Part shown: one piece after another, positions 6,682 through 62,663 of the stretch | How the letters are laid out: each line of letters begins with the position of its first letter | Position numbering within the stretch: position 1 is the stretch's first letter | Sequence record: MT150133.1 | Source of the DNA: Enterobacteria phage vB_EcoM_IME540 | Length of the DNA stretch: 64,000 nucleotides | Strand: one strand, 5' to 3' | The notes under the pieces: model-generated | Told to the model about the DNA's origin: nothing | Database searches by the model: none | Seen by the model: only the letters and a program-made list of their open reading frames with translations | Translations under genes and position numbers: made by a program

Positions 6682-6710
6682 ATACTAACATATCCTTAGG
6701 GATTGTAAAC
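6682..6710 (-). promoter_or_regulatory. early sigma70-type promoter (-35 GTTTAC, 17-nt spacer, TGn-extended -10 TAGTAT)
   Basis: GTTTAC at 6705..6710 and TAGTAT at 6682..6687 on minus strand, 43 nt upstream of asiA ATG; leader starts AGCCCTATCA. Confidence 0.5.
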
Positions 6711-6854
6711 ATGTCCTTCGTTCTTTTTAACATATTCCTGATACATCTCTTCTATTGGTTCCTGGAACTTAAAATCAGCTCCCAGGAATTCCTCAAAGCA
6801 CTCCTGATCACGCGTACGCATGCCTGTTACGGTATTCTCTAAGTTATGACTCAT
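6696..6854 (-). CDS. hypothetical small protein (52 aa)
   Basis: Sub-threshold ORF MSHNLENTVTGMRTRDQECFEEFLGADFKFQEPIEEMYQEYVKKNEGHVYNP filling the gap between arn-region gene and asiA; SD-like AAGGGTAAAGG; speculative. Confidence 0.3.
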   Translation of the reverse strand: MSHNLENTVTGMRTRDQECFEEFLGADFKFQEPIEEMYQEYVKKNEGHVYNP

Positions 6855-6943
6855 AGCCTTTACCCTTATGTTTCTGTTTACGTTTAGACTCTTTAAAGTT
6901 TTTCTTCTTATCCTTATGGACAGAAGCCTTATTGAAATCGTGC

Positions 6944-7225
6944 TTAGCTACCAGATTGTTCACGTAATTTCCTTAATTGATATTCAAGAGAGCTGATAAT
7001 TTCTTTATTAGTTGCAATATACATATCACGTAGGAACGGCTTCAACCCTTCCATATTCCCATGGATTGTCTTGGAACTAATATTCTTTATATATTCATGG
7101 TCCAATGCATCCCAAGCTGGTTGGTTGACATAAGTTCCCCAGTTGTCTTCCACCATAACATTAAGACGTTTAATATGGTTAATATGGGCTTCGATTGCAT
7201 CAATCTGGAGTTGTTTAAGATTCAT
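6944..7225 (-). CDS. hypothetical protein (arn-region position)
   Basis: 93-aa ORF in gene string; start overlaps upstream stop (TAATG); T4 Arn is similar in size and position but sequence identity not verified. Confidence 0.6.
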   Translation of the reverse strand: MNLKQLQIDAIEAHINHIKRLNVMVEDNWGTYVNQPAWDALDHEYIKNISSKTIHGNMEGLKPFLRDMYIATNKEIISSLEYQLRKLREQSGS

Positions 7226-7713
7226 TAGTAAAGGTCCTCAGAGTAAAGTTCTTTTTCACTACCACCACGTTCAATACGTACTTGTCCGGCGTAAGTTGCA
7301 ATAATCATTGCTTCTTCACGGGTCCAATAGTTTGAATATTGGTCAATAAAGCCTTGGTCATCACCACAAACATGGTCTGATACAAGTTTATCACTTACCT
7401 GGTCAAGAACTTCAGCCATATCTTTAGAATAATGACGAGCGCCAGGAATAACCAGAGTCCCACCATCTTTTAACTTAAAGCGGTTGGCTGCACACACAAT
7501 TCGACGTTGATATTTTTCATTATTGTTCCAATAGGCAATCTGCCAACAGATTTCAGGAACCTCTTCTAAAACATCCTCTTCCGTATATTTGGTGTAGTCG
7601 CCATAGGCCTGTAATTTAGCTGCTAGACTTTCGGGCGTCTCACGAGAAAGAGCTTTATCTAATAAGGCCATTCGGTCTTTAAAGGATAATTCTTTACCTT
7701 TTAATGGATTCAT
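7225..7713 (-). CDS. hypothetical protein
   Basis: Track ORF begins at TTG; likely ATG start MNPLKGK at 7713 overlapping upstream stop (ATGA). Confidence 0.65.
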
Positions 7714-8039
7714 TTGAACCAACCTTTAACACGTTGCCACAGACTTTTCTGTTGAGCTTTATTAACACCAATTGAACGAATGACAGGTTGTGATTCCTGG
7801 TATTCTTTATAGTCTGCTTTATAAACTTCGTAAGCTGCGTCAACAAAGGAAGAAATAGCTGCCATATAATTTTTACGAATACCGAGTGGTGCTTTTCCAT
7901 CGTCACGATGAATAAAGTATGAACCGGCTTTAATCTTCACAATACTTCCGAGATAAGCACCATGATACCAAATGTCCCAACCTTCTTGAGTAGGTTCTGC
8001 ACAACGACGAAGTTCATTAACAATATTCAGCTTGTTCAT
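7710..8039 (-). CDS. hypothetical protein
   Basis: 109 aa; SD GAGGAAATT before ATG; co-directional in motA-asiA early cluster. Confidence 0.65.
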
Positions 8040-8049
8040 AATAATTTCC

Positions 8050-8682
8050 TCAGATTGCGTTAGTTACGGTTTTGATAACTTCAGATGATACATTTTGGAA
8101 GTCGATATAAGTATTCTTACCACCAGTCTTAATCTTAACATCAAGATTCAAGGAAGTAAACACTTGTTTTTCTTTATCAGTCATATTATAACCGAAGATA
8201 CGCATCATTCCGTCGCGACGGACTTCGATTTGACGAATACCATTGGTGCGTTTAGCGAATCGAACTTCAAGGTTGCTACGGTTTTCAGCAATTTCACGAA
8301 TCTCGATACGGTCTTCTAATAAAGCTTTAACTTCATCAGCCAGAGTTACCATTTCAGGAGTAACACCACGTGAACTGCGTGTTTTACGTTTTTCCAACAT
8401 CTCTGGAGCATTTTCAGAAGCGAACAGGTCGGCAGCTTTTTGAACTAGGTCCATTGCTTCACCTGTAGCCACTAAACCATCACCAGATTTTTCGATGAAT
8501 CCTTTCTTAATCAATACACCGATGTTAGAGTTAACTACCGCAGCACTAAATTGCTCACTCAGGGCTTCACGGACTTCGCCTGAAGTGATGAAGTTATGCT
8601 TGATGATATGTACTAAGATCGAAGCAGTTTTTTCATTCAGGACGTCTTCAGAAGCTTTGATGATATAAGTAATTTTAGACAT
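8050..8682 (-). CDS. motA: middle-transcription activator MotA
   Basis: Matches recalled T4 MotA (MSK.TYIIKAS.DVLNEKTA, VNSNIGVLIKKG..EKSGDGL..TGEA, KRTNGIR, MRIFGY.M); track start is GTG, true start ATG MSKITY with SD GGAGA. Confidence 0.93.
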   Translation of the reverse strand: MSKITYIIKASEDVLNEKTASILVHIIKHNFITSGEVREALSEQFSAAVVNSNIGVLIKKGFIEKSGDGLVATGEAMDLVQKAADLFASENAPEMLEKRKTRSSRGVTPEMVTLADEVKALLEDRIEIREIAENRSNLEVRFAKRTNGIRQIEVRRDGMMRIFGYNMTDKEKQVFTSLNLDVKIKTGGKNTYIDFQNVSSEVIKTVTNAI

Positions 8683-8720
8683 TTTGTATCTCCATTTCAC
8701 TCTATTGTTTTGATAGGTCT

Positions 8721-8749
8721 ATAGTATCATGTTTAAAGCAGAAGTAAAC
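8721..8749 (-). promoter_or_regulatory. early promoter (-35 GTTTAC, TGa-extended -10 TACTAT)
   Basis: Minus strand GTTTAC-TTCTGCTTTAAACATGA-TACTAT, then conserved leader AGACCTATCAA, 38 nt upstream of motA ATG. Confidence 0.6.
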
Positions 8750-8767
8750 ACTTTTTTCACTAAACCC

Positions 8768-8788
8768 AAAAAAGAACCCGAAGGTTCC
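8768..8788 (-). terminator. intrinsic terminator (GGAACC-TTCG-GGTTC hairpin plus TTTTTT)
   Basis: GC stem with TTCG loop and T-run on minus strand right after the micro-ORF that follows gene 52. Confidence 0.6.
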
Positions 8789-8893
8789 TTACTTTTTAAA
8801 GTGGGCCGCTATTAAACCTATAGCTAAGCCTGTCGCCAGGCCTAGAATAACAGCAAAGATACAGAGTAACAAGAACTCGACTCCAAGGCTCAT
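8789..8893 (-). CDS. small hydrophobic peptide (34 aa), translationally coupled to gp52
   Basis: ATG overlaps gp52 TGA stop (ATGA); sequence MSLGVEFLLLCIFAVILGLATGLAIGLIAAHFKK is a single predicted transmembrane helix; sub-threshold ORF. Confidence 0.45.
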   Translation of the reverse strand: MSLGVEFLLLCIFAVILGLATGLAIGLIAAHFKK

Positions 8894-10604: not shown

Positions 10605-11054
10605 TTAGTAAGCCTGAAGGATGAATTTAAAGTTATCAGCCAACATACGGTTCATTTCTTCCAGTGTCTGGAGGTCGGAACTATGATTGCGAGTGAAAGC
10701 CATTGCAATTTGACCCTTACCAAAACCAGTAGTCAGAGGTTTCATCTTAGAAGCCGGTACATAAAGAACTTCATACACAACACCGTTCACTGCCATAGTG
10801 CGAGCTGATTGAGAACGTTTCTTACGAATGTTAGCCACGATACCATCGAGACCTTGAGCAGAACGTTGATTACCGACATAAAAACGAGCAGCTACGACAC
10901 GAGAATCAGCACCACCTTTAACAAAGAAGTAGAAGCCTGGTTGAGCAGAGATTTCTTTAGAAGGTTTACCATTTTGGTATTCACCGTTCTTAACATAAGC
11001 AACAGTAGTAGCACCAGCAGACAGAACGTTACGGCGAGTCATATAAGTATTCAT
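10605..11054 (-). CDS. ndd: nucleoid disruption protein Ndd
   Basis: 149 aa; matches recalled T4 Ndd ([52 protein letters not shown]); SD GAGGAAATT. Confidence 0.9.
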
Positions 11055-11103
11055 ATCAATTTCCTCAGTAGATTAATGTTTTGTTATCCGGTCAACGAGA
11101 ACC

Positions 11104-11132
11104 ATTATAACATGATTCTCGAGGTTGTAAAC
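11104..11132 (-). promoter_or_regulatory. early promoter (-35 GTTTAC, 17 nt, -10 TATAAT)
   Basis: Consensus hexamers on minus strand 49 nt upstream of ndd ATG; inverted repeat CGAGAA / TTCTCG brackets the -10. Confidence 0.65.
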
Positions 11133-11476
11133 TATTTTTGTAGCTGTTCTAAAATAAATCCGCTGGTGTAAAGGCTTGCATTATACAGGCGGTCAAGAGA
11201 TAACGAATCCAATCCATAAGCTTCACGAATTGCATTGATAGCACTCTCATAACTTGTATAATAAACATCGCGATAATCGCGGTCCATAGTCATGCGGAAC
11301 TTAATAAATTTGTAGAAACCAGTTTCAGGGTCCTGATAGAATGCAAATTCTGCAGACGCTAAATTTTTAAGGTTAACAGCTTTTGTGTCGCCTGAATAAC
11401 TTAAATCAAATGTTTCTGACATGCTAATCTGTTTAAAGAACATAATGTTGCGATTACCAAAAAATAATTTAGACAT
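11132..11476 (-). CDS. hypothetical protein
   Basis: Track ORF trimmed to ATG MSKLFFG with SD AAGGAAAAT. Confidence 0.6.
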   Translation of the reverse strand: MSKLFFGNRNIMFFKQISMSETFDLSYSGDTKAVNLKNLASAEFAFYQDPETGFYKFIKFRMTMDRDYRDVYYTSYESAINAIREAYGLDSLSLDRLYNASLYTSGFILEQLQK

Positions 11477-11709: not shown

Positions 11710-11820
11710 TCAGAAGTTAAAGAATACACGTACATGGTCAATCATAAAAACGATTGGGAAAATGCTCAATACCATTAACAACACAAACATGTTCCAAATT
11801 GCTTTAAGTAAGTTTTTCAT
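11710..11820 (-). CDS. small hydrophobic peptide (36 aa)
   Basis: Sub-threshold ORF MKNLLKAIWNMFVLLMVLSIFPIVFMIDHVRVFFNF directly downstream of an early promoter; SD GGAGA; its stop TGA forms part of the next gene's SD. Confidence 0.4.
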   Translation of the reverse strand: MKNLLKAIWNMFVLLMVLSIFPIVFMIDHVRVFFNF

Positions 11821-11846
11821 AATCATCTCCATTAGTTGATAGGTCT

Positions 11847-11875
11847 ATAATATCATGATTAATGGAGATGTATAC
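11847..11875 (-). promoter_or_regulatory. early promoter-like element (-35 GTATAC, -10 TATTAT with TGa)
   Basis: Same module and leader (AGACCTATCAACTAATGGAG) as other early promoters; spacer ATCTCCATTA is complementary to leader TAATGGAGAT. Confidence 0.5.
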
Positions 11876-11965
11876 TGATTTATGCCAATTTCCACAACAA
11901 TAAACTAAAACATACGCAAATCACTGGGATACAGGCCATCCAAATAAGGCACCACATTTTGCTAC

Positions 11966-12232
11966 TCAAAACACCACCTCTTTTATCTCAATTAATCCCC
12001 TGTGCAATGCAGTACGAAGGTCATAAAGAATATCTATGCCGTCAACATTATCCAGTTTTCCATCAATAAGCTTTTCTAAATCTTCCTTGGATGCGATTAA
12101 GGGGCGGAGAAATTTACATTCAGAAAGAGATAACTCTGTAGTAACATCATCACCTTCACCTGATGCATCATACATAGCGGCAACAACCATACCTGTAACT
12201 TTGTGTTTAGCGTAATATAATTTGATATCCAT
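11966..12232 (-). CDS. hypothetical protein (88 aa)
   Basis: Track ORF begins at GTG inside the promoter; ATG MDIKLYYAK follows SD GAGGAG in conserved leader. Confidence 0.6.
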   Translation of the reverse strand: MDIKLYYAKHKVTGMVVAAMYDASGEGDDVTTELSLSECKFLRPLIASKEDLEKLIDGKLDNVDGIDILYDLRTALHRGLIEIKEVVF

Positions 12233-12260
12233 TTTGTTCTCCTCATTAGTTGATAGGAAG

Positions 12261-12290
12261 ATAGTAACACCATCCATGGCGTATGTAAAC
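12261..12290 (-). promoter_or_regulatory. early promoter (-35 GTTTAC, 18 nt, -10 TACTAT)
   Basis: GTTTAC-ATACGCCATGGATGGTGT-TACTAT then leader CTTCCTATCAACTAATGAGGAG on minus strand. Confidence 0.55.
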
Positions 12291-12306
12291 ACCTATTTTA
12301 AAAAAA

Positions 12307-16737: not shown

Positions 16738-17047
16738 TTTTAACTACCTCATGTTGAACATATTCTCTGGTAGAACCTAGTTCAGCCAGAATTCTTCTCA
16801 TAGAACCCATTGTACTCTTGTGATCCCGATGGCGATACATTATCTCTAAAACCTTTTCCTGGACCACAGGAGAGAGCGCCTGGTTATCTTTAATCTTTAA
16901 GGCAATAGATTTTACAGCCTTAAGGTATTCAAGTCCCTTACCGCTTGTAGTCACTATTCCTTCGTCCTTACAATTTCGTATGGCTGTTTCCATAAAGGAT
17001 AGAGCCAGGTTGTCAGTGTTCACTATACTGTTATCTTGCATAATCAT
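16724..17047 (-). CDS. hypothetical protein (107 aa)
   Basis: Track ORF trimmed to ATG MIMQDNSIV after SD AGAGGTGAG. Confidence 0.55.
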   Translation of the reverse strand: MIMQDNSIVNTDNLALSFMETAIRNCKDEGIVTTSGKGLEYLKAVKSIALKIKDNQALSPVVQEKVLEIMYRHRDHKSTMGSMRRILAELGSTREYVQHEVVKNDKL

Positions 17048-17097
17048 ATTCTCACCTCTAGATAATCCTATCATAACCACGGGTCTTTGTAAACCCC

Positions 17098-17118
17098 GAA
17101 AAGGGCCCGAAGGCCCTT
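17098..17118 (-). terminator. intrinsic terminator (GGGCC-TTCG-GGCCC hairpin plus TTTT)
   Basis: GC-rich hairpin with TTCG loop just after the stop at 17125; a -35-like GTTTAC (17089..17094) follows. Confidence 0.6.
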
Positions 17119-17124
17119 ATTAGT

Positions 17125-19658: not shown

Positions 19659-19869
19659 TATAAGTTTCCTTCCAGAAGTCGGTGCCTTCAGCAGTGATTT
19701 CACGGAACACCGCATAGATAGGGTTTTTATCACCTTGATTTTCGTATACATAAACCGATGATAAATGAGAAAACATATCAGAATGTTCCTTTTGGACCAC
19801 GATTAAATCAGGGTTGAACAGAACATCTTCAAATTCTTCACGAGTCGAGTTCATAGTAACTTTAGCCAT
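19645..19869 (-). CDS. hypothetical protein (74 aa)
   Basis: ATG MAKVTMNST with SD GAGAGGAAAAT; downstream of an early promoter-like element. Confidence 0.6.
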   Translation of the reverse strand: MAKVTMNSTREEFEDVLFNPDLIVVQKEHSDMFSHLSSVYVYENQGDKNPIYAVFREITAEGTDFWKETYNATL

Positions 19870-19899
19870 TTTATTTTCCTCTCATTTGTTGATAGGGTA

Positions 19900-19929
19900 A
19901 TCTTATCACTACCCTACCATATTGTATAC
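19900..19929 (-). promoter_or_regulatory. early promoter-like element (-35 GTATAC, -10 TAAGAT, TGa)
   Basis: Weaker hexamers; inverted repeat GGTAGGGTA / TACCCTATC brackets the -10. Confidence 0.4.
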
Positions 19930-19942
19930 TGTTTTTTAAACT

Positions 19943-20509
19943 TTATGCAAAATGAATATCAGCATACTCAACGATAAAGCTCTCAGGAACAACCTTAAAG
20001 GTTCCAAGGAATACGATGTTATAGAGCTTAACGCCTTCTTCAACCCATTGGTCTGTGATGTAACCGGACATACTAGTGGTTTCATAAGTCGGACCATACT
20101 TGCAATTGTATTCAAACGGTTTAGGTGAAACGAAAAAGACACCTTTACCCAATTTCCATTTGAAATCAACACCAACATGAGATTGGTCAATAGTTTCAAC
20201 GTCTTGAGCTACTACGCCACGGATATCATTGCTTTCACATACATACCTATCATGGGATTCAACTTCTTCAACTACAGGAGCGATGTATCCGGTAAATTCA
20301 GTCGATTCCAAGAATTTAGCACGCACATAAGCGAATTGAGTTTCAGTCTGGCCATTTTTAGGAATGATACGCACTTTTACTTCAGAATTTTCTACACTGA
20401 CACCTTCTTTAAGTTGGATGCTAACAACTTCAACTAAACGGCCTGCAGCTTTTGAACGAGACTTTTTGGATACACGAACGATACCGCCGATATCGGAAAT
20501 AGTAATCAT
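19943..20509 (-). CDS. hypothetical protein, paralog of 20583..21338 (shared C-terminal domain)
   Basis: 188 aa; C-terminus GYITDQWVEEGVKLYNIVFLGTFKVVPESFIVEYADI aligns with CGWVTDQWVEDGVELLNVVHAGDFSVVPRSAVVNVLN of the upstream gene. Confidence 0.65.
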   Translation of the reverse strand: MITISDIGGIVRVSKKSRSKAAGRLVEVVSIQLKEGVSVENSEVKVRIIPKNGQTETQFAYVRAKFLESTEFTGYIAPVVEEVESHDRYVCESNDIRGVVAQDVETIDQSHVGVDFKWKLGKGVFFVSPKPFEYNCKYGPTYETTSMSGYITDQWVEEGVKLYNIVFLGTFKVVPESFIVEYADIHFA

Positions 20510-20551
20510 AATTTTTCTCTCTTGGTTAAAGGTTTATAATCCATGAGAGCC

Positions 20552-20580
20552 ATTATAACATGGCTCTCGATAAAGTAAAC
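20552..20580 (-). promoter_or_regulatory. early promoter (-35 GTTTAC, 17 nt, -10 TATAAT)
   Basis: Consensus hexamers; 7-bp inverted repeat GAGAGCC / GGCTCTC flanks the -10. Confidence 0.65.
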
Positions 20581-20582
20581 TA

Positions 20583-21338
20583 TTAATTCAATACATTAAC
20601 CACTGCACTACGAGGTACTACACTAAAATCACCAGCATGGACAACGTTCAGGAGCTCAACACCATCTTCAACCCACTGGTCTGTTACCCAACCACAGATA
20701 GGATTATCAAAAGGACGACGGATAGACACAGCAGCACACAACAGGTCGGTAGGGTCTTGTTCTTCAACTTCTTGGAACAGGATTAACTCTGCTTCATAAA
20801 CCAGGTTTTTCTCTACTTTGTTATTATCTAACCGGCGACCGTGGATGACATAAGATTTGGCAAACCAGTCACTTTTGGCAAATTCTTCAACAATAAATTC
20901 GCCTTCGCCAAAAACAGCAGTCAGAGTTTTATAACCAGAAATCAAGGCCTTAGTTTTAATTTCAGGTTCAACCAGTTTGTAGGTTTTGCCGATTTCGATA
21001 GTCTGAGTAGTCATAGGTGATTCCTTAATTTCCAGTGGTTTAACAGGGCATACATAAGTGCTTAAAACATCAAAATCAATTAGCTGGCTTGCCATTGGGG
21101 CCAAACGAATAAATGAATCAATTTCCCGTTGTGACAAGCGAATGGTGTGGATTTCCGGGACACCGCATTCTTGAACTGTTACAGATTTAATATTATCAAA
21201 CTCATCAGGTTCAATAGAAAGAATACGGAACTCGGTACCTTTAGTCATCTTTTTAAGGATGTCATAAGCTTGGTTGTGGAGCTTAAGGGCTGAAAACGGC
21301 GTAACAATATATTTGGCATTCGGATCAAAAGTGTTCAT
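20583..21338 (-). CDS. hypothetical protein, paralog of 19943..20509
   Basis: 251 aa; start overlaps upstream stop (ATGA); shared C-terminal motif TDQWVE.GV.L.N.V..G.F.VVP. Confidence 0.7.
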   Translation of the reverse strand: MNTFDPNAKYIVTPFSALKLHNQAYDILKKMTKGTEFRILSIEPDEFDNIKSVTVQECGVPEIHTIRLSQREIDSFIRLAPMASQLIDFDVLSTYVCPVKPLEIKESPMTTQTIEIGKTYKLVEPEIKTKALISGYKTLTAVFGEGEFIVEEFAKSDWFAKSYVIHGRRLDNNKVEKNLVYEAELILFQEVEEQDPTDLLCAAVSIRRPFDNPICGWVTDQWVEDGVELLNVVHAGDFSVVPRSAVVNVLN

Positions 21339-21844
21339 AATTTTCTCATTTCAATAAAATCTACAAGTTCGGCATGGGATTTGCGGAACATTACTTGGCG
21401 GCCGCCGATGACAACCTCATCTTCTGGTATTTCGTAAACAGCGAGGTAAAATCCTTTAGAAGATAATTCTTCACGCTCTTCACGAGTGAACCAGCGCATC
21501 ATATCATACTCGCTGGCAAAAGCAAAATGGTAGAGGTTAACAAACCAACCTGGAATATAATCATCAGAGCCTTCATAATCAGACCGTTTCCACTTGGTTC
21601 TAATGGCTTTATTAGAATTTTCTACCAACAACTTATCTTGACCTGGTAGCGGAATATTTTTATTAATGCTATGATGATGCCTAAAATTAGGTCTGTTGAA
21701 ACCTACTTCCAATAACCAACCTTCACTCCACGGGTCCATTGTACTTCTATATGGAGTCATTTGGATACAGAGGTCTCGACGTATTGTTACAGCATCTTCA
21801 TAATCTAGGATACTGAACGATGACTCCACTCGATAAATTTTCAT
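21335..21844 (-). CDS. hypothetical protein (169 aa)
   Basis: ATG MKIYRVESS after SD GAGGAG in conserved leader. Confidence 0.7.
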   Translation of the reverse strand: MKIYRVESSFSILDYEDAVTIRRDLCIQMTPYRSTMDPWSEGWLLEVGFNRPNFRHHHSINKNIPLPGQDKLLVENSNKAIRTKWKRSDYEGSDDYIPGWFVNLYHFAFASEYDMMRWFTREEREELSSKGFYLAVYEIPEDEVVIGGRQVMFRKSHAELVDFIEMRKL

Positions 21845-21871
21845 TTTGTTCTCCTCATGTTGATAGGGTAG

Positions 21872-21900
21872 ATAATATCATGTCATGAGGAGAAGTAAAC
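21872..21900 (-). promoter_or_regulatory. early promoter (-35 GTTTAC, TGa-extended -10 TATTAT)
   Basis: Spacer TTCTCCTCATG is the reverse complement of leader CATGAGGAGAA, which contains the SD. Confidence 0.6.
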
Positions 21901-21904
21901 ATTT

Positions 21905-22579
21905 TTATCGATTTTTTATACTTAATGGGTCAGGATTCTCAGGGACATCTTCCAGGCCCAAAGCGTATCGTTGGGCATATTTAAGCATCAGGATATCCTT
22001 AGCACAGTCATGGATGGAGTCATGGGCAACAAAGCCATTCAATGTTCCGTTAGGCAGAGGACACATGCTCAATCCACGAGTTAGTGAATATGCTTCAATA
22101 GCCGTACGGATATCGCGTTGGTTCCAGAATTTAACCGGTTCTAATTTACTGGTATCAATTTCATTCTCGGGAACACCTTCAGAACGATAAGCATCACGAA
22201 TAAGGTCGACTAAGATAGGAAAGTCAAATGACATTCCACGGCACCACATCTGTGATTTCCATTGGTCTACTTCGTTTTTACGGCAGTATTCCAGGAAATT
22301 GCCAAGGCCGATAGAAGTGGACACATCAATTTCGGATGGCGCCAGGTTTTTACGTGCTTCAGGCCCTTGCTCTTTCCACCACTGCAACGTGCTTTTAGAA
22401 AACAGTCGTCTATCACGTTGAGAAGCGAGGTCAAATTTAATACGAAGGCCTCGTTGAGTAAGCTCTTCAAACGTTTCTACAACCTCTGGATTAGGGTCAT
22501 AAGCAATTACCGCGAGGTCAATAACCGCCGCATTTTGGGTTGTGGCAAAGGTTTCGAAGTCGATAATTATATCTTTCAT
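21905..22579 (-). CDS. dexA: exonuclease A (DexA), DEDDh 3'-5' exonuclease
   Basis: Matches recalled T4 DexA (IIIDFET, AVIDLAVIA.DPNPEVVETF.EL, WCRGMSFDFPILVDLIRD, FVAHDSIHDCAKDILM.KYA). Confidence 0.9.
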   Translation of the reverse strand: MKDIIIDFETFATTQNAAVIDLAVIAYDPNPEVVETFEELTQRGLRIKFDLASQRDRRLFSKSTLQWWKEQGPEARKNLAPSEIDVSTSIGLGNFLEYCRKNEVDQWKSQMWCRGMSFDFPILVDLIRDAYRSEGVPENEIDTSKLEPVKFWNQRDIRTAIEAYSLTRGLSMCPLPNGTLNGFVAHDSIHDCAKDILMLKYAQRYALGLEDVPENPDPLSIKNR

Positions 22580-24451: not shown

Positions 24452-25186
24452 TTAACCTCTAATCAGTGAAAAAATTGAAGCATTCAGCGGAAGACCTTTT
24501 TTCAACTTCATTTTGTCAATAAAAGAAAGGTGTTCTAAACGCTCCAGACCTTGAATAATTTTATCATACATATCGTAACGCGTTTCTGCTTCAGACAATT
24601 TAAACTTGACACGCCAATCAGGCCCACCAATTAAAGATTTAAGACCCTTTTCCATAGTACCTATTGAAGCGTTAGAACCGTGGATACGAGCTTTAACCGC
24701 GATAACAGAAGGGGTCTTATCAGTAGCTCCTGATTTAATAAGGTCTTTAAGACGTTTTTCACGCTTTTTAAGACCTCTTTGGGTATCTTTAATATTTTTA
24801 ACGATTTTACGAATTTTATAATAATTATCGGGGGTAACTTTAAAACTATTAGGCATTTTAGAACTACCTGAAATACGGACCGCTAAACGGGTCTGGGCTC
24901 GTTTCAATTCATCTAGAGACAAATCGGCACGTAAACTGTTGTACTTAACTTTAACTGGGATTACATTACCTTCAATATAACCAATATCGTTATTAAAACG
25001 TTCAAATGAAATCTTATCATTAACTGAATTCTCATCAAAGCACTCGCCTGAATAAGCACACACTTTTTGTTCGAGAAGTCTACGAACATACTTACTAGAT
25101 AGGTTGAAGTCCTTACCGCGTTTATAAGCAGAAGCTTTGGTGTGTTTGCGGCGGTTGTAAACCTTTAACTCAAATTCAGTAGTCAT
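24452..25186 (-). CDS. hypothetical protein (Srd-like position, 244-248 aa)
   Basis: Basic, K/R-rich protein downstream of an early promoter; T4 has srd between dda and modA but sequence identity not verified; start 25186 or 25198. Confidence 0.6.
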   Translation of the reverse strand: MTTEFELKVYNRRKHTKASAYKRGKDFNLSSKYVRRLLEQKVCAYSGECFDENSVNDKISFERFNNDIGYIEGNVIPVKVKYNSLRADLSLDELKRAQTRLAVRISGSSKMPNSFKVTPDNYYKIRKIVKNIKDTQRGLKKREKRLKDLIKSGATDKTPSVIAVKARIHGSNASIGTMEKGLKSLIGGPDWRVKFKLSEAETRYDMYDKIIQGLERLEHLSFIDKMKLKKGLPLNASIFSLIRG

Positions 25187-25224
25187 GATTTTTCTCATCT
25201 TACGGACGATTAGTTGATAGGTCT

Positions 25225-25253
25225 ATAGTATCATGTTGCTAGGTAAAGTAAAC
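25225..25253 (-). promoter_or_regulatory. early promoter (-35 GTTTAC, TGa-extended -10 TACTAT)
   Basis: Same module and leader AGACCTATCAACTAA as other early promoters. Confidence 0.6.
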
Positions 25254-25322
25254 ACTTTTTTGCTTTAAATTTTCGACGGTATAATGAATCAAGGACTTTG
25301 CCTTTCAATTAAACCGGGTGGT

Positions 25323-25937
25323 TCAGTAAGAAAGAACGGAAAGATTCCAAATGGTGTAATTATTCCATTTAGGATTTCTCTCAATAGAGTCTATGCGCAG
25401 CGTAGTTCCCGCAGGGAACATCATCTCATCTTCATCATTGATTAATTGTAAGTTTGCTACACGGGTAGATTCAGGAAATGCACCTGGGAACTCTTCAGGG
25501 GGCGCGGCACATAACATTTTAAAGATTTCTTCCTGATAATTGTACACAAATGGTGCATCATTAATACAAAAGATATTAAATGTGCCGTAGAAGTTATAAG
25601 ATGCGAAGTTACGAGCTACATTGAAATCTTTTGAGAAGCTCATTACTCGGTCGAATTCAATTACGGCACCTACACACATAGTAGATTCAAGATATGCCAT
25701 AGTCTTCTTAGAAATCCCACGGTACAACTTGTCAGGCACTGCAGAAGTCAGGTTCTTACGAATAATTTTGTTCAGAGTTTCCTGGATATTATCTGGTTTA
25801 TTTTCCATGCACTGCCAGAGGGTACTCTGTTCTAAATCAGAATACACCTCATCAATTTCTATCTGAGTATTCTCACGGAAATCATCGCATTTGGCATTGT
25901 TGATAAATTCTGCTAATTTATGGCTTGGATATAACAT
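25323..25937 (-). CDS. modA: ADP-ribosyltransferase, ModA-like
   Basis: 204 aa with R-S-E ART signature in order (LYRGIS ... MSFSKD ... YQEEIF); tandem with a second ART as in T4 modA-modB. Confidence 0.7.
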   Translation of the reverse strand: MLYPSHKLAEFINNAKCDDFRENTQIEIDEVYSDLEQSTLWQCMENKPDNIQETLNKIIRKNLTSAVPDKLYRGISKKTMAYLESTMCVGAVIEFDRVMSFSKDFNVARNFASYNFYGTFNIFCINDAPFVYNYQEEIFKMLCAAPPEEFPGAFPESTRVANLQLINDEDEMMFPAGTTLRIDSIERNPKWNNYTIWNLSVLSY

Positions 25938-25962
25938 ATTATTCTCCTCAGTTGGTAGAAAG

Positions 25963-25992
25963 ATAGTACCACAAGCTTCCTTGCCTGTAAAC
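25963..25992 (-). promoter_or_regulatory. early promoter (-35 GTTTAC, 18 nt, -10 TACTAT)
   Basis: Hexamers on minus strand 25 nt upstream of the modA-like ATG; SD GAGGAG. Confidence 0.55.
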
Positions 25993-26561: not shown

Positions 26562-26585
26562 ATGACCTCCAGTGATTTAGAGGTC

Positions 26586-26614
26586 ATTATAACATGAAGG
26601 GAGGAGGTGTAAAA
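26586..26614 (-). promoter_or_regulatory. early promoter-like element (-35 TTTTAC, -10 TATAAT)
   Basis: Spacer ACCTCC is complementary to the SD GGAGGT of the downstream gene. Confidence 0.5.
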
Positions 26615-26616
26615 CT

Positions 26617-28226: not shown

Positions 28227-28236
28227 CCTTAAAACC

Positions 28237-52932: not shown

Positions 52933-53258
52933 TTCGCTGCCTTAACAATTTTCAGGTCAACGAATTTTTTCTTACGTTGGTTTTTCATACGACGGATAGT
53001 TTTATCAGAGATTTCACCAGGGGCCCAAGCTTTAGATTCTACACCAAAGGCAGCGACATCGAATTCATCGAGGATATATTGAACCAGAATTTCACGAATA
53101 CCGTTCTTACCAATTTTCTGGTCTTTAGAGTGCATGATAGGTAACAGTTCAGCAACCCATTGGTCAAGAACCTGAGGAGTTACAAAACCAGTTTTCATCA
53201 GTTCGTTTACTTTATCGAAAGCGAAAGAGTTCAGTACGTTTTTAATAGCTTGTGACAT
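52929..53258 (-). CDS. hypothetical protein (109 aa)
   Basis: Track ORF start lies in the promoter -10; ATG MSQAIKNV follows SD GAGGAAATT. Confidence 0.6.
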   Translation of the reverse strand: MSQAIKNVLNSFAFDKVNELMKTGFVTPQVLDQWVAELLPIMHSKDQKIGKNGIREILVQYILDEFDVAAFGVESKAWAPGEISDKTIRRMKNQRKKKFVDLKIVKAAK

Positions 53259-53297
53259 AATAATTTCCTCAGTTTTAAATTTATAATCCGTAGGACC

Positions 53298-53327
53298 ATT
53301 ATACTCTGGTCCCAAGAGTTTGTAAAC
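53298..53327 (-). promoter_or_regulatory. early promoter (-35 GTTTAC, 18 nt, -10 TATAAT)
   Basis: Consensus hexamers; -35 overlaps upstream stop codon; inverted repeat GGACCA / TGGTCC brackets the -10. Confidence 0.65.
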
Positions 53328-53527
53328 TATTTTTGTGTTTTGGCGCCTTTCCAACCTTCATACATCATTGCTGCGGAAATTAACAAAGCACCTGAGCAAC
53401 TTGAATATTTGTGATTCCAAAACCAGTTCAGAAAAACTTCATCATCAATACCTTGGGCCATCATATTTTCAAAGAACTGACGACGGGCTTCAGCAATTCG
53501 CTGTGATAATTTAGATTCAGGATTCAT
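53327..53527 (-). CDS. hypothetical protein (66 aa)
   Basis: ORF in gene string. Confidence 0.5.
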   Translation of the reverse strand: MNPESKLSQRIAEARRQFFENMMAQGIDDEVFLNWFWNHKYSSCSGALLISAAMMYEGWKGAKTQK

Positions 53528-54217: not shown

Positions 54218-54390
54218 AATTTGATTTCCTTAGCTATCGAACAAAATACACCACGGTCACAAATCATTTTAATATTAAGATCAATTATGATATACCACAC
54301 ATCCAGGCTAGATATTTCAGTTACTAGAACAGCTTTGCCGTTGATTGAATAATACTGGTCGACTTTAATTTCTTTATCTTGGATAGTCAT
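54214..54390 (-). CDS. hypothetical small protein (58 aa)
   Basis: Sub-threshold ORF MTIQDKEIKVDQYYSINGKAVLVTEISSLDVWYIIIDLNIKM... after SD GAGGAG in conserved leader; stop overlaps next ATG (ATGA). Confidence 0.4.
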   Translation of the reverse strand: MTIQDKEIKVDQYYSINGKAVLVTEISSLDVWYIIIDLNIKMICDRGVFCSIAKEIKL

Positions 54391-54419
54391 AATGTTCTCC
54401 TCATGTGTTGATAGGATAG

Positions 54420-54448
54420 ACTATAACACATGAGGAGAGGAAGTAAAC
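54420..54448 (-). promoter_or_regulatory. early promoter (-35 GTTTAC, TGt-extended -10 TATAGT)
   Basis: Spacer CTCCTCATGTG is complementary to leader CACATGAGGAG, which contains the SD. Confidence 0.55.
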
Positions 54449-54449
54449 A

Positions 54450-54815
54450 CTAATCTTCAATTAAATCTCGGTCATAACCAAGTTCAATCAAAAGTGACTT
54501 AAAGGCAGGAATATTTTCTATTTTCTTATTATCGACAAAGATGACAGGATAGCGTATCGCTAAGCTCTTGAAACCGGCGCGTTTGGCCAATGATACTATA
54601 AGAGGCTTGTCATATACTGCGCCTGACGGCGTCTGGTTAATCACAGGATAGAAAGTATGTGGGATAGAAAGGGAATTTAGGAGCGATAGAACTGCAATGC
54701 ACCCTGGACAGCGCATGACTGTCTCAGGGATGCCATAGATTTCGATTTTAGTTAACTTTTGGTCCACAGGAAATAACTCCTTGGTAGTCCCAAGTTTTGA
54801 TAACTTCGTCTTCAT
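54450..54815 (-). CDS. thioredoxin-fold redox protein with CPGC active site (NrdH/glutaredoxin-like)
   Basis: KIEIYGIPETVMRCPGCIAV resembles a glutaredoxin-type beta1-CxxC-alpha1 start; start uncertain (ATG at 54815 without SD, or GTG at about 54767 after SD AAGGAG). Confidence 0.55.
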   Translation of the reverse strand: MKTKLSKLGTTKELFPVDQKLTKIEIYGIPETVMRCPGCIAVLSLLNSLSIPHTFYPVINQTPSGAVYDKPLIVSLAKRAGFKSLAIRYPVIFVDNKKIENIPAFKSLLIELGYDRDLIED

Positions 54816-57627: not shown

Positions 57628-58634
57628 TTCAGCAGCTCCAGAGCCTGTTCAAGACGGTCTAAACGATTGGTAGACTCTTCCCAAAGTTTCTTGGCGGCGG
57701 TATATTGGCCAGTCAGTTTTTTGTTGATAGCAAGGGCGTCTTTATACGCTTTTTCCAAGGCAACGACTTCCGGTAACTTGGATTTAGTAATTGGTGTAGG
57801 GGCCATGATAGGGCTGTTCAAGTCGTTAATCAAGTCTTCTAATGTAGCAGGCTCTTTATCAGTGTTCACAATTTCCTCACATTTTTCTTTGTAAATTTCA
57901 GCATCAGTTTTTGGAACGGTACATTTGATTTCACGGACTGTTACTAAGACCTCATATCCTTTCCAGCCTAAGTGGTGTTTAACTTCTTGGGTCTCATATT
58001 TCTCTACGGTATCCATCAGAGCTAAAGCTTGTTCGATAGTATTCAAGGTATCGTAAGCAATATCTTGATACTTTACAACTTCCGCATCATCTTTAGGTTT
58101 CCTATTAGGTGACCAAATAACAGAAATAATAGCTTTTCCTTTATAACTATTTGTTTTAATCATGCAATTAGCCATCGGGTGAATAGTACGACAATCACCG
58201 GAAACTATAGTTTTAGAGGCCGCTTTGAGAATTAATGCAGAGTTAGCCTTGAATTCGCTAACCCAACGTTGCGGAAATAAACTATTAGGGTCCATACCTT
58301 TAATTTTGATATAACCTTTTATGGTATCACCAAACCATTTGTAGCTAACAACACGGTTGGAACCTGGATATTTCTCTTTACCGAACTCAGAAAGGATGTC
58401 CTTATTGACCAGGCGCGAAAGCAGTCGAGAACCTTTAAATGTTTTAATGATATCATGAATGCACAAACGGCCTGCAATCTTTTCGATTTCAGCTTTGAAA
58501 CAGCGCGATAATGCATCATCAATTTGGTCGACCCATTTATTGATATTAGAAACTATTACCTCGTATGGGGTTAACGGAGGGGTGTTGGTAGTGATATACG
58601 TAGTAAAGGCATTGATGTATTCAGTACGAGTCAT
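57624..58634 (-). CDS. hypothetical protein (336 aa)
   Basis: Track ORF start lies in the promoter -10; ATG MTRTEYINAF follows SD GAGGAG; no motif recognised. Confidence 0.7.
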   Translation of the reverse strand: MTRTEYINAFTTYITTNTPPLTPYEVIVSNINKWVDQIDDALSRCFKAEIEKIAGRLCIHDIIKTFKGSRLLSRLVNKDILSEFGKEKYPGSNRVVSYKWFGDTIKGYIKIKGMDPNSLFPQRWVSEFKANSALILKAASKTIVSGDCRTIHPMANCMIKTNSYKGKAIISVIWSPNRKPKDDAEVVKYQDIAYDTLNTIEQALALMDTVEKYETQEVKHHLGWKGYEVLVTVREIKCTVPKTDAEIYKEKCEEIVNTDKEPATLEDLINDLNSPIMAPTPITKSKLPEVVALEKAYKDALAINKKLTGQYTAAKKLWEESTNRLDRLEQALELLK

Positions 58635-58661
58635 GATATTCTCCTCAGTAGATTTAAAAAG

Positions 58662-58691
58662 ATTATACTCCATCCGTCCTTGGATGTAAAC
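58662..58691 (-). promoter_or_regulatory. early promoter (-35 GTTTAC, 18 nt, -10 TATAAT)
   Basis: Consensus hexamers; leader CTTTTTAAATCTACTGAGGAG. Confidence 0.6.
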
Positions 58692-58692
58692 A

Positions 58693-59574
58693 TTATTTTA
58701 GAGCTAATACTGCCGCGCTAAGCTTGTCACGCTGGATTTCCATGTTCTTGATGCGAATCAATACGTCTTGAATACTCTTTTTCTCATCTTCGATCTGGCC
58801 GTTTAAACGGTGGATTGATTCCTGGAGGTGGTCCTCATGATACTTCTCGATAGGTTTCATCGTAGGGTTAGTAACAACCAAAGAATTATCAGGTTTAATT
58901 TTCCAATGATACGGTTCAGAATTGAATGGACTCGGTACAGCCGTGGTTTTGAATCTGTCATAGGCTGCATACTGGCCTACGCTGTCACATGATACTGCAG
59001 AGATACGTCGTTCCATTTCCGGTTCCTTTTGTTGGGATTGATAAGGGGCATAAGACAAAAGATATTCACGAGTTAGTTTAACATTAAAATACACTGCATC
59101 GGGCCGTCCGGAACAATCAGCATATTCATCTGTTGTAACCTTATATGATTCTACAGCCTTAATACGGGTCATTGCTTCCCTGAATAAGGTTTCAAATGCT
59201 TCACGAAGGGCCTTATTACCTTTTGAGGTAGGACGGAAACGAACTTGAATGCCGTCATTCAGAATATTAATGACTAGGTTACGAGCCGTAAAATTAATAT
59301 TCTTGATATTGACAGGAACCGTAGAAATACGTCCCGCGGTAGCCAAGAGGTCTTTGATATTAGCTCGCAATGTTACACCAAACAGGTGGGCTGGGCCACG
59401 GCAATAATCGTTCAAAGAACTAATATAAGTCCCTTTACGACCTACACCATAAGTATAATTACCATTACAAATATGGCCGAAGTCGGCCAGCCGATCGATA
59501 GCGATACGCTTGGTTACACCAAAATCATATCGGGAATATTCTTTACGTGTTTTAATGTTCATATTAAAGTCCAA
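58693..59574 (-). CDS. hypothetical protein (293 aa)
   Basis: Co-directional ORF with C-terminal coiled-coil-like region. Confidence 0.7.
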   Translation of the reverse strand: MDFNMNIKTRKEYSRYDFGVTKRIAIDRLADFGHICNGNYTYGVGRKGTYISSLNDYCRGPAHLFGVTLRANIKDLLATAGRISTVPVNIKNINFTARNLVINILNDGIQVRFRPTSKGNKALREAFETLFREAMTRIKAVESYKVTTDEYADCSGRPDAVYFNVKLTREYLLSYAPYQSQQKEPEMERRISAVSCDSVGQYAAYDRFKTTAVPSPFNSEPYHWKIKPDNSLVVTNPTMKPIEKYHEDHLQESIHRLNGQIEDEKKSIQDVLIRIKNMEIQRDKLSAAVLALK

Positions 59575-60683: not shown

Positions 60684-61208
60684 TTATGCGAGAACCGTCT
60701 TTAAACGCTCTTCAAATTTCTGAAGCAGAGCTTGGCGTTCAGCTCGTTGTGATTTGTACTGCTCGATACGACCTGAAGTGAGGGCGTACTGTTCGTTTAC
60801 TGATTCCCGCATGAATTCAGGAATCTCTTTACAAGCTTTGATTTCGTCAAACTTATCAATAACAGCTTGTTGTTCAGCAATCAGATTATCGAAATAAGCG
60901 ATATCAGATTTAACGTTTGCCAGGTCGGATTCGGTAGGCATTAAACGTTTGTTACGTTCAGCTTGATAAGCTTGATTGGTTTCACGGCTCCAGTGAAGAG
61001 TACGTTTTTTGTTGGTGTTTTTATAGAGCTCTACAATACCAACTGAATCGATGATAACAATCCAGTTCCAACGGCTTTTGTAAATCTCTCCTCCAGATAC
61101 AGTAATCTCATTACCACAAGCAACGTCGTTAAAGAACTTGCTTTGTTTTTCAGATTTGAAATTACCGTTGTTGAAATTAATCAGTGAAAAAATATCTTTA
61201 GCGTTCAT
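60684..61208 (-). CDS. hypothetical protein (174 aa)
   Basis: ATG after SD GGAGG in conserved leader. Confidence 0.7.
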   Translation of the reverse strand: MNAKDIFSLINFNNGNFKSEKQSKFFNDVACGNEITVSGGEIYKSRWNWIVIIDSVGIVELYKNTNKKRTLHWSRETNQAYQAERNKRLMPTESDLANVKSDIAYFDNLIAEQQAVIDKFDEIKACKEIPEFMRESVNEQYALTSGRIEQYKSQRAERQALLQKFEERLKTVLA

Positions 61209-61234
61209 GATAACCTCCAGTAGTTGATATGTCT

Positions 61235-61263
61235 ATAGTATCATTTCTACTGGAGATGTAAAC
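61235..61263 (-). promoter_or_regulatory. early promoter (-35 GTTTAC, TGa-extended -10 TACTAT)
   Basis: Spacer CTCCAGTAG is complementary to leader CTACTGGAG, which contains the SD. Confidence 0.6.
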
Positions 61264-61265
61264 AA

Positions 61266-61607
61266 CTAATAGAAACTTTTTTCACCTGCTTGTCCACTAA
61301 ACCACGCTGATTGGGTCACAGTTTTCCTTTGTTGAGCGATACGCTCTTGATAATCACTACGAATGGCGCGCTGCTTATCTCTGAAGTCGCCTGCCAACTT
61401 TACCTGCTTGCGGTCTAGATTTATTAAGGCCTGGGTCTTCGCGGCCAAGAGCAATCTCCTGTAGTCTCCTTCTTCGGATTCAGTTTTATAAACTCTATTA
61501 GTATATCCGTCGACAACTTCTTTATCATAGTCCTCGACGGACTGTTTCATGGCATCACGATGGGCCAAACCTGCGTTATAAAGATTGTAAATAAATTGTT
61601 CGAACAT
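61266..61607 (-). CDS. hypothetical protein (113 aa)
   Basis: Co-directional ORF. Confidence 0.65.
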   Translation of the reverse strand: MFEQFIYNLYNAGLAHRDAMKQSVEDYDKEVVDGYTNRVYKTESEEGDYRRLLLAAKTQALINLDRKQVKLAGDFRDKQRAIRSDYQERIAQQRKTVTQSAWFSGQAGEKSFY

Positions 61608-61616
61608 AATTTATCC

Positions 61617-62597
61617 TTATTTCAGAAGTGTAACTTCAGAGATTTCACCCCAGTCATTTTTATCGGTGGCAATGAAATCCGCCAGATAAAGAGCTGTACG
61701 TAATGATACGTTACGAAGACGAGATACATTAGCCTTCATCCATGCTAAAGCTTGGTAAGTCTCGGCGTCAGTCAGACCACGGTTTTGCATCATATCAGTG
61801 GACAGGATAACGTCTTCAACACGAACCATAATCTCTTCGTTCGAGTGAACTCCGAGGTCTAAGTAAACTGAACGCGATACTAAAGCCTGGAGGTGTGGAG
61901 CAAGTTTAGTTCCACGCTCTAATTCACGGTCGATATCAACGTTGGTGATGAACACGATGGTGCCTTCGTATTCGAATTCTTTATCGATGTTTTTATCATC
62001 GAGATAAGAACTTGAAGTGCTCCAGCACACCTTACGTTTTTCACCGGTATCCAATGCCGCTTTCAGAAGGTTCAGGATATCCATATCAGAGAATACATCA
62101 ACATCATCGATAAGAAGAACACTATTAGGGCCGCGGTTATTCCAAAGCTGCTCGTAAAGACCGATTCCACTAATCTTTCCGTTGATTGATTTATATTCGA
62201 TAGTTTCATTTTCGTGGGCATTCTGTAATGCTTTATCCAAAGAATACGTTTTACCAATACCTGCGGCACCAGAGATGATAAGGGAACGAATTTTACCATC
62301 GATGATTCCGTTGGTCATCATGTTCATTACTTTAAAACGTTTGTTGATGCGATGTTTCATTTCTTCAGCGGATTCAGTAACAACTGCAGGAGCTTCAGCA
62401 CCTTCGGTTTCGATATCACATTTGAACACCCATACACCACGTTCAACACCATCAATCTGTACGAATACCTTGCCATCACCGAGGTGAGCTTCGGATTCAT
62501 GAATTTTATTAGGGAACCAGGTTTTACCTGAACTCATGAACGTACCAGAGATTACATTACCGCGATAGATACCTTTGTTGATTTTGATAGTTAACAT
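61617..62597 (-). CDS. AAA+ family ATPase (327 aa)
   Basis: Walker A GAAGIGKT and Walker B LLIDDVD; track ORF extends upstream through the promoter, true start ATG MLTIKINKG after SD GGAGAA. Confidence 0.7.
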   Translation of the reverse strand: MLTIKINKGIYRGNVISGTFMSSGKTWFPNKIHESEAHLGDGKVFVQIDGVERGVWVFKCDIETEGAEAPAVVTESAEEMKHRINKRFKVMNMMTNGIIDGKIRSLIISGAAGIGKTYSLDKALQNAHENETIEYKSINGKISGIGLYEQLWNNRGPNSVLLIDDVDVFSDMDILNLLKAALDTGEKRKVCWSTSSSYLDDKNIDKEFEYEGTIVFITNVDIDRELERGTKLAPHLQALVSRSVYLDLGVHSNEEIMVRVEDVILSTDMMQNRGLTDAETYQALAWMKANVSRLRNVSLRTALYLADFIATDKNDWGEISEVTLLK

Positions 62598-62634
62598 TAT
62601 ATTCTCCATTTCACTCAGTAGATTTGATAGGTCC

Positions 62635-62663
62635 ATAATAACATGCTCTACGAGAGTGTAAAC
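62635..62663 (-). promoter_or_regulatory. early promoter (-35 GTTTAC, 17 nt, -10 TATTAT)
   Basis: Directly downstream of terminator at 62683; leader GGACCTATCAAATCTACTGAG. Confidence 0.6.

Follow-up and report, generated by a model that had tools for sequence, protein, structure and literature searches.

The top direct-repeat families in a 64,000-nucleotide stretch of Enterobacteria phage vB_EcoM_IME540 (MT150133.1; hereafter the window) are promoter-plus-leader cassettes, of which 21 complete intergenic copies are present, all on the minus strand. They very probably represent T4-type phage early promoters (Pe) in the form of promoter-early stem-loop (PeSL) cassettes. The feature is real but already known, being an instance of the published T4-type early promoter/PeSL class. 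Individual cassettes are named here by their -35 coordinate (for example, 21900 or 54448).

Each of the 21 cassettes comprises an A-rich UP element, GTTTAC with at most one mismatch, a hexamer-to-hexamer spacer of 17–18 bp and a -10 of the form TAnnAT, and 19 of them have a TGn extended -10. This is the promoter layout put forward in the original prediction, whose ten example positions (8721, 11847, 12261, 21872, 25225, 31738, 32687, 40862, 54420, and 61235) each correspond to the low coordinate of a minus-strand cassette -10, and whose limits fall on the first cassette's -10 (6682) and the last cassette's -35 (62663). At least 15 sites had been expected to share the layout together with the leader; the layout itself exceeds that number, but the full combination falls slightly below it, with the leader motif present in 12 cassettes at one mismatch or fewer and in 14 at two or fewer. 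In a sequence logo of the 21 cassettes, the UP element, GTTTAC, TGn, the -10, and a CCT at -3 to -1 stand out. A occupies each of the five columns just 5′ of the -35 in 11–17 cassettes, while the fourth and fifth nucleotides past the -10 are C in 15 and 16 cassettes, respectively, and the sixth is T in 16. The leader from the predicted start to the Shine-Dalgarno sequence (SD) is short, usually 18–24 nt. A GAGGAG SD at a fixed distance from the ATG had also been proposed; GAGGAG is found in only 7 of the 21, with GGAG in 13, and the gap to the ATG is 6 nt in 12 cassettes within a range of 4–8.

A pattern scan of the window returned 36 minus-strand and 13 plus-strand candidates, from which the 21 intergenic full cassettes are drawn. 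With the leader excluded, a weight matrix built on the UP, -35, TGn, and -10 columns matches 22 minus-strand sites and no plus-strand site. Exact CCTATCAAC occurs nine times in the window, in all nine cases on the minus strand and 3–4 nt past a -10, against ∼0.5 occurrences expected for a 9-mer in 128 kb. Similarly, GACCTATCAAC with at most one mismatch gives seven matches where 0.95 are expected, a count reached in none of 100 shuffles. A generic sigma-70 consensus scan of the window did not rise above shuffled sequence (67 versus 57, 55 versus 56.5, and 58 versus 52.5) and did not single out the cassettes, unlike the T4-specific pattern, which does isolate them.

The description of the sites as a reused early promoter is borne out by comparison with T4. 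They fit the published T4-type consensus and lie 5′ of orthologs of T4 early genes, among them asiA, motA, ndd, modA, modB, srd, motB, motB.2, imm, and sp, and ten occupy the positions of T4 early promoters (nrdC.8, nrdC.4, 55.6, mrh.2, modB, srd, motB.2, ndd.4, motA, and asiA). T4-like early promoters are known to have GTTTAC and an A-rich -40 to -44 region (Nolan 2006, PMC1524935), and those of T4 show consensus beyond the elements contacted by polymerase (Hinton 2010, PMC2988021). The cassettes share with them the UP element, GTTTAC, TGn, TAnnAT, the C preference at -3 to -1, and the same early genes. Host sigma-70 RNA polymerase would be expected to use them right after infection through contacts with UP, GTTTAC, TGn, and TAnnAT. 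The T4 GenBank record is without promoter features, so T4 promoters were re-derived by pattern search; the same scan gives 40 minus-strand and 3 plus-strand sites, and the same 12-mer occurs after T4's own early promoters, many of which carry AGACCTATCAAC or its variants ACAACTATCAAC and TACCCTATCAAC. RB69 promoters carry TATCAAC, and those of RB49 have GTTGAC and, in places, CCAAC. Since 30 mapped T4 middle promoters are without CTATCAAC, the block is specific to early promoters. The two phages also differ: about a third of T4 early promoters bear the motif compared with CCTATCAAC in 12–14 of the 21 here, and T4 spacing is almost always 18 bp, whereas 17 bp is as common as 18 in the window. 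Moreover, the present phage belongs to another genus, Dhakavirus, and its promoters are predicted from sequence.

The position of the conserved 12-mer relative to the start site can be predicted from T4. In the 30 T4 middle promoters with mapped starts (Hinton 2010, Table 1, placed on the T4 sequence), +1 is the seventh nucleotide past the -10 hexamer, usually a purine following a pyrimidine, and for the T4 early promoter whose -35 begins at 133331 the seventh nucleotide is 133295, matching the record's name, Pe133295. Carrying this rule over, we infer that +1 is the A of ATCAAC in TACTAT-AGACCT-A, with AGACCT as the discriminator (-6 to -1) and TCAAC at +2 to +6. It follows that (A)GACCT would be untranscribed, so that half of what had been called a conserved transcribed segment would not be RNA. 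The most informative columns past the -10 are those of CCT at -3 to -1 (0.9–1.4 bits), in keeping with the preference for C at these positions in early promoters of RB69, RB49, and 44RR (Nolan 2006, PMC1524935). In JS98-type motB.2 orthologs, -6 to -4 varies while CTATCAAC is constant. We consider it probable that the 12-mer acts at the start site, where the -3 to +6 block would influence initiation (open-complex stability, start-site choice, or escape) rather than operate as a folded leader.

Two known elements were tried against the motif and rejected. The consensus for IHF binding is WATCAANNNNTTR; TATCAA fits only its first half, and the TTR half is missing. An NAD-capping promoter is disfavored by the bases at -1 and +2, which do not fit its consensus. 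We also observe that, in cassettes with TGATAC...TATCAAC, such as at 8729–8711, the TATCA of the start motif can pair with TGATA, its reverse complement, which is formed by TGn and the two leading bases of the -10. The resulting 5-bp mini-helix across the -10 is available in 9 of 13 motif-bearing cassettes, and T4 TGGTA pairs as well through G-U; it could be incidental.

The spacers and leaders of many cassettes are predicted to pair. When the sequence between the end of the -35 and the ATG is folded, z averages -2.2 across 20 cassettes; in nine of these it lies between -2.1 and -7.7, and the 5′ arm of every significant hairpin is located 5′ of the predicted +1. Cassettes 61263, 54448, 21900, and 11875 have spacers that pair with the SD region, and in 53327, 31767, 20580, 19929, and 11132 the partner of the spacer is the -10 and start region (individual stems are given in the table). 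Shorter hairpins within the spacer are found in 58691, 40891, 25992, 12290, and 6710, frequently with an AAGGA loop. This AAGGA(A) loop is common to within-spacer hairpins whose stems differ, in the window (58685–58672, 40883–40869, 25986–25971, and 6702–6691) as in T4 (2458, 50973, and 167086); for nrdC.4, the T4 ortholog reads CCAC-AAGGA-TGTGG.

The pairing is specific to each cassette. Pairing of the untranscribed part is better with the leader of the same cassette than with leaders of other cassettes, to a degree reached in 15 of 20,000 permutations for the window and 1 of 20,000 for T4. Upstream of motB.2, the stem is TTCTCCTCATG/CATGAGGAGAA in the JS98 type, TTCCTCGGTTAG/CTACTGAGGA in the T4 type, and TTCTCCTCTGGTT/AACCAGAGGAGAA in RB69. 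A search of IMG/VR for motB.2 relatives yielded 11 loci with two promoter haplotypes, RB69 supplying the third; we report the stems lineage by lineage because that of T4 is shifted by two columns and there is no common consensus structure. Stems of the nrdC.8 and ndd.4 promoters likewise differ between the window and T4. Owing to G-U pairs, better folds are obtained with the sense strand than with the antisense strand (n = 52, p = 2e-4), which argues for structure in RNA rather than a DNA cruciform. The predicted probability of an unpaired SD is 0.50 in a cassette's own transcript and 0.26 in read-through RNA (p = 0.005), and for six cassettes (61263, 58691, 54448, 26614, 21900, and 11875) it is at most 0.01 in read-through RNA versus 0.26–0.81 in their own.

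Because the 5′ arm is upstream of +1, such a hairpin would form only in RNA initiated at a promoter further upstream. Sequence 5′ of +1 (spacer, -10, or discriminator) is complementary to downstream sequence in about half of the cassettes, and in six to nine the SD would be buried. A different structure is found directly 5′ of cassettes 8749, 17094, 28226, 32715, and 62663, namely an intrinsic terminator with a UUCG loop. A significant spacer hairpin is present in none of these five compared with 9 of the 15 other cassettes tested (Fisher p = 0.038). Terminator and hairpin would then be alternative means by which expression of a gene is tied to its own promoter. Six near-identical terminators of the form AAGGnnCC-TTCG-GGnnCCTT plus a T-run are found on the minus strand (8762–8791, 17091–17120, 28232–28261, 32720–32749, 50822–50851, and 62677–62706); five of them directly precede an early promoter, and the one at 50.8 kb is not followed by such a cassette.

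The same arrangement would bear on cleavage by RegB. The published RegB/S1 target is a GGA in single-stranded RNA with an A-rich stretch after it, and structure prevents cleavage (Durand 2006, PMC1702504). The GGAG and ∼6 A-rich nucleotides before the ATG in the cassettes fit this target, and the T4 RegB/S1 sites given there are alike in having GGAG and an A-rich stretch right before the ATG, as in GGAGAACAAAATG; in the present phage the resemblance is one of nucleotide sequence. GGAGAACAAAATG itself recurs at SD regions of the window (for example, 21858–21844, 12246–12232, and 32674–32662), fitting a GGA with an A-rich 3′ flank. The regB gene lies outside the window and is found at 56.3 kb in JS98. 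Since cutting needs single-stranded GGA and is blocked by structure, the hairpin would shield read-through RNA from RegB, and each gene would be translated, and exposed to RegB, only from the transcript of its own promoter. Whether the hairpins do insulate genes from read-through transcripts we regard as evenly balanced.

There is precedent in T4 for hairpins that sequester the ribosome-binding site (e, soc, 49, I-TevI, and segB, together with Aeh1 mobE). As in the cassettes, their 5′ arm is upstream of the proximal start and their 3′ arm is on the SD, such that they fold only in upstream-initiated RNA and leave proximal transcripts open, as predicted here. In contrast, those hairpins accompany late promoters and late genes, whereas here an early promoter and early genes are involved. 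The reviews consulted attribute hairpins of this kind with an internal promoter to late genes only.

PeSLs have been described for the pairs RB49/phi1, T4/PST, and KVP40/nt-1 (Arbiol 2010, PMC2839356; Comeau 2014, PMC4122927), and JS98 is mentioned in passing only (Arbiol 2010). The cassettes resemble them in being dispersed, near-identical intergenic units of promoter, stem-loop, SD, and ATG located at ORF-sized indels. The combination of early promoter and stem-loop is seen here in the 9 of 20 cassettes that fold with z of -2.1 or lower and in five others with an upstream terminator, and hairpin positions match the stem-loop subclasses listed for PeSLs (between -35 and -10, over the -10, or upstream as a terminator). 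The stems differ from those of RB49, which are of the G-run/C-run type. Stems joining spacer to SD are common here but are not described in the PeSL papers, which read stem-loops as terminators or attenuators.

Cassettes are also found where relatives differ by an open reading frame (ORF), in two cases with the ORF flanked by duplicate cassettes. At the motA locus, JS98 orf253 lies between two near-identical cassettes; the window has a single one, which carries the upstream leader and runs into motA at the SD/ATG. A pair of cassettes likewise encloses an extra ORF 5′ of nrdC.10 in JS98, where the window has one. At modB, a 234-bp JS98 insertion falls right at the -35. A single 55-nt cassette gives 970 matches in 369 phage records, with 10–13 per Dhakavirus genome, and cassettes 8749 and 62663 are alike from terminator through ATG. 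Cassette 53327 (55.2; window 53341–53290) is identical over ∼38 nt to the T4 motB promoter (T4 ∼7200), and cassette 32715 (orf34; window 32722–32668) is 95% identical over ∼42 nt to the T4 denV promoter (T4 65413), in both cases at non-orthologous positions. Promoter cores seem to move or convert between loci and genera. Being near-identical, cassettes of ∼55–115 bp would act as sites of homologous recombination at which single ORFs are inserted or deleted.

Other accounts of the block beyond the hexamers have to be set against action at the start site. The original prediction took its conservation as a sign of selection on the leader RNA. A function in mRNA, for example, a 5′-terminal AUCAAC serving stability, processing, or enhanced translation, would be consistent with the predicted transcription of ATCAAC and with the retention of TCAAC or TCAAA in promoters of T4 and RB69, including those with a different discriminator; the fixed spacing from the -10 is compatible as well, because a 5′-terminal function would also be anchored there. 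However, the best-conserved CCT is upstream of the predicted +1, and the motif keeps a rigid distance to the -10 (3–4 nt) but not to the SD (2 to >20 nt). The hallmarks of a structured cis-regulatory leader RNA, namely an Rfam family, a fixed position relative to the SD or AUG, and complementarity to 16S rRNA, are likewise missing: an Rfam search of the whole window gave no matches, and the longest complement of the leader to E. coli 16S rRNA is 5 nt, which 1997 of 2000 shuffles equal. Recognition by RegB/S1 needs sequence 3′, not 5′, of GGAG (Durand 2006, PMC1702504). A role for 5′-terminal AUCAAC in the RNA is possible, but a leader-RNA element is an improbable explanation of the conserved segment. 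Concerted evolution, in which recombination or gene conversion through PeSL shuffling mainly keeps the block alike irrespective of the function of its bases, draws on the near-identical cassettes at non-orthologous positions across genera (T4 motB/53327 and T4 denV/32715), on the duplicate cassettes around extra JS98 ORFs, and on the likeness of 8749 and 62663. Homogenization is not wholesale, because spacers differ freely and covary with their leaders. In addition, the same -3 to +6 consensus is found in three genera whose proteins are 35%–75% identical, and CTATCAAC is constant beside a variable -6 to -4 in the JS98-type motB.2 orthologs. Gene conversion may contribute to the similarity of the cores, but it does not suffice as an explanation, and as the main cause of the conservation we judge it rather unlikely.

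The -3 to +6 block (CCT|ATCAAC) might alternatively be an operator, the cis target by which a phage factor turns early promoters off minutes after infection. Its occurrence at early promoters and absence from the mapped T4 middle promoters, which have the same geometry of -10 and start, would suit such a role, and reviews describe the mechanism of shut-off as unknown and as not acting via AsiA or ModA (including Hinton 2010, PMC2988021). At least one-third of early promoters are without the motif, though, no candidate binding protein was found here, and there is no dyad symmetry past the 5-bp TGATA/TATCA match, making a shut-off operator very improbable. Better supported than a shut-off target, as judged from predicted folds, is that about one-third of the early promoters in JS98-type phages, T4, and RB69 would be enclosed by a covarying hairpin in which the SD is hidden in read-through RNA only. 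Recent duplication of whole gene cassettes, which the original prediction had itself raised as a competing explanation, is rejected. The modA/modB paralogs each have their own cassette, but this is an old pair, and the other 19 of the 21 downstream proteins are mutually dissimilar. In pairwise comparisons the core reaches an identity of 0.54, as opposed to 0.27 upstream and 0.30 over the first 60 coding nucleotides; values outside the ∼55-bp core are at background. Chance is countered by shuffles that never reach the observed counts and by the location of all sites on the transcribed strand; together, duplication and chance have almost no claim on the data.

Several points weigh against the interpretation of the cassettes given here. 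Seven to nine of them, and the T4 motB.2 ortholog as well, are without CTATCAAC, which argues that the motif is dispensable for an early promoter. Promoter activity and +1 in this phage are extrapolated from T4, and the conservation of -3 to +6 could be due in part to gene conversion among cassettes, not to selection acting base by base. Only 3 of the ∼16 breakpoints between the window and JS98, the one relative compared, are at cassettes. The sense/antisense asymmetry in folding is not significant in the window alone (p = 0.11), and no more than 6–9 of the 21 hairpins cover the SD; translational insulation does not account for those bracketing the -10 or contained in the spacer.

Table. The 21 early-promoter cassettes of the window. 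Single numbers under -35 give the cassette's -35 coordinate; predicted +1 is placed by analogy with T4 starts.
Cassette	Span	Strand	-35	-10	Conserved segment	Predicted +1	ATG	Hairpin, terminator, or other feature
asiA	6636..6724	-	6710-6705	TAGTAT 6687-6682	CCTATCAGA	6675	6638	Short within-spacer hairpin
motA	8680..8791	-	8749	TACTAT 8726-8721	AGACCTATCAAA	8714	8682	Terminator 8790-8771
ndd	11052..11146	-	11132	TATAAT 11109-11104	Without CTATCAAC		11054	Spacer pairs with -10/discriminator; outer CCUC/GAGG stem extends to SD
ndd.4	11818..11889	-	GTATAC 11875	11852-11847	AGACCTATCAAC	11840	11820	Spacer ATCTCCATTA pairs with SD-containing TAATGGAGAT; z -2.8
88-aa ORF (JS98 orf262)	12230..12304	-	12290	12266-12261	CCTATCAAC	12254	12232	Within-spacer hairpin
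107-aa ORF	17045..17120	-	17094	TAGGAT 17070-17065			17047	Terminator-like hairpin 17118-17101; 11-nt leader
cef	19867..19943	-	GTATAC 19929	TAAGAT 19905-19900	TACCCTATCAAC	19893	19869	Spacer GGTAGGGTA pairs with TACCCTATC; z -5.4
motB	20507..20594	-	20580	TATAAT 20557-20552			20509	9-bp palindrome GAGAGCCAT/ATGGCTCTC around -10; z -4.4
motB.2 (orthologous to T4 early promoter at 8.2 kb)	21842..21914	-	21900	21877-21872	CCTATCAAC	21864	21844	Spacer TTCTCCTCATG pairs with SD-containing CATGAGGAGAA; z -5.9
srd	25184..25267	-	25253	25230-25225	AGACCTATCAAC	25218	25186	No significant hairpin
modA	25935..26006	-	25992	25968-25963	TCTACCAAC		25937	Within-spacer hairpin, AAGGAA loop
modB	26559..26628	-	TTTTAC 26614	TATAAT 26591-26586			26561	Discriminator GACCUC pairs with SD GGAGGUC; z -4.1
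mrh.2	28168..28261	-	28226	TAAGAT 28202-28197			28170	Terminator 28260-28241
sp	31707..31781	-	31767	31743-31738	AGACCTATCAAC	31731	31709	Spacer GGTCTATGGTA pairs with TACTATAGACC; z -4.0
105-aa ORF (JS98 orf34)	32660..32749	-	32715	32692-32687	AGACCTATCAAC	32680	32662	Terminator 32747-32730
imm	40829..40905	-	40891	TAGTAT 40867-40862	CCTATCAAC	40854	40831	Spacer hairpin CCACAAGGAACGTGG
55.2	53256..53341	-	53327	TATAAT 53303-53298			53258	GGGACC/GGTCC around -10; z -2.1
55.6	54388..54462	-	54448	TATAGT 54425-54420	CCTATCAAC	54412	54390	Spacer-SD 14-bp stem TCTCCTCATGTG/CACATGAGGAGA; z -7.7
nrdC.4	58632..58705	-	58691	TATAAT 58667-58662			58634	Spacer hairpin ATCC-AAGGAC-GGAT
nrdC.8	61206..61277	-	61263	61240-61235	AGACATATCAAC	61228	61208	Spacer ATCTCCAGTAG pairs with SD-containing CTACTGGAGGT; z -3.9
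nrdC.10	62595..62706	-	62663	TATTAT 62640-62635	GGACCTATCAAA	62628	62597	Terminator 62704-62687

A 14-kb stretch of the window is 91%–95% identical to JS98, IME08, QL01, and further members of Dhakavirus, all T4-type coliphages. Mapped onto the JS98 annotation, positions 1–6.3 kb hold plus-strand late tail-fiber and holin genes, and from ∼6.4 kb to the end the genes are on the minus strand throughout, in the order asiA, motA, ndd, rIIB/rIIA, 39, motB, dexA, dda, srd, modA/B, 61, 41, uvsX, 43, 45, 46/47, 55, and the nrdC region. Four segments (21083–21334, 50194–50802, 12852–13059, and 62678–62905) have no JS98 counterpart or an unrelated replacement, in the manner of small replacements in hyperplastic regions. 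JS98 in turn has, at ∼49270–49496 on the minus strand between nrdC.10 and nrdC.11, a ∼75-aa ORF with its own cassette, SD, and ATG that is unannotated in NC_010105 and absent from the window.

Two further promoter-like sites lie on the minus strand. The first, at 8161–8127 within the motA coding sequence, has a full early-promoter score (AAGT GTTTAC, 18 bp, TGT TAAGAT) with no SD or ATG after it; it could represent either an internal promoter or a chance match in coding sequence. The other, at 35745–35690, is 5′ of uvsX and has an extended -10 (TGA TATAAT) followed by TACCCTATC, with a poor -35 (TTTAAC) and no evident MotA box; T4 has a middle promoter at the same position.

The suggestion that ORF calls overextend genes into these promoters holds for ORFs 61617–62684, 11966–12292, 31416–31769, 32345–32674, 16724–17080, and 8050–8700, which begin inside or upstream of a promoter and for which the SD-preceded ATGs are at 62597, 12232, 31709, 32662, 17047, and 8682, respectively. 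In JS98, srd is annotated five codons beyond the start supported by T4 (window 25198 versus 25186); in T4, a reading frame opened at the upstream ATG runs into a stop. In IME08 (HM071924, 19467–19521), the orf34 cassette lies under a CDS annotated as a hypothetical protein.

Mechanical ORF calls and at least one public annotation therefore run through promoters, and from the cassettes the gene starts and transcription units of JS98-like therapeutic phages can be assigned reliably. The finding otherwise restates the T4 early-promoter/PeSL story in another genus. Insulation, if true, would explain why RegB cuts early transcripts but not longer ones with the same GGAG, and how an exchange of single ORFs between phages can leave the neighboring genes undisturbed.

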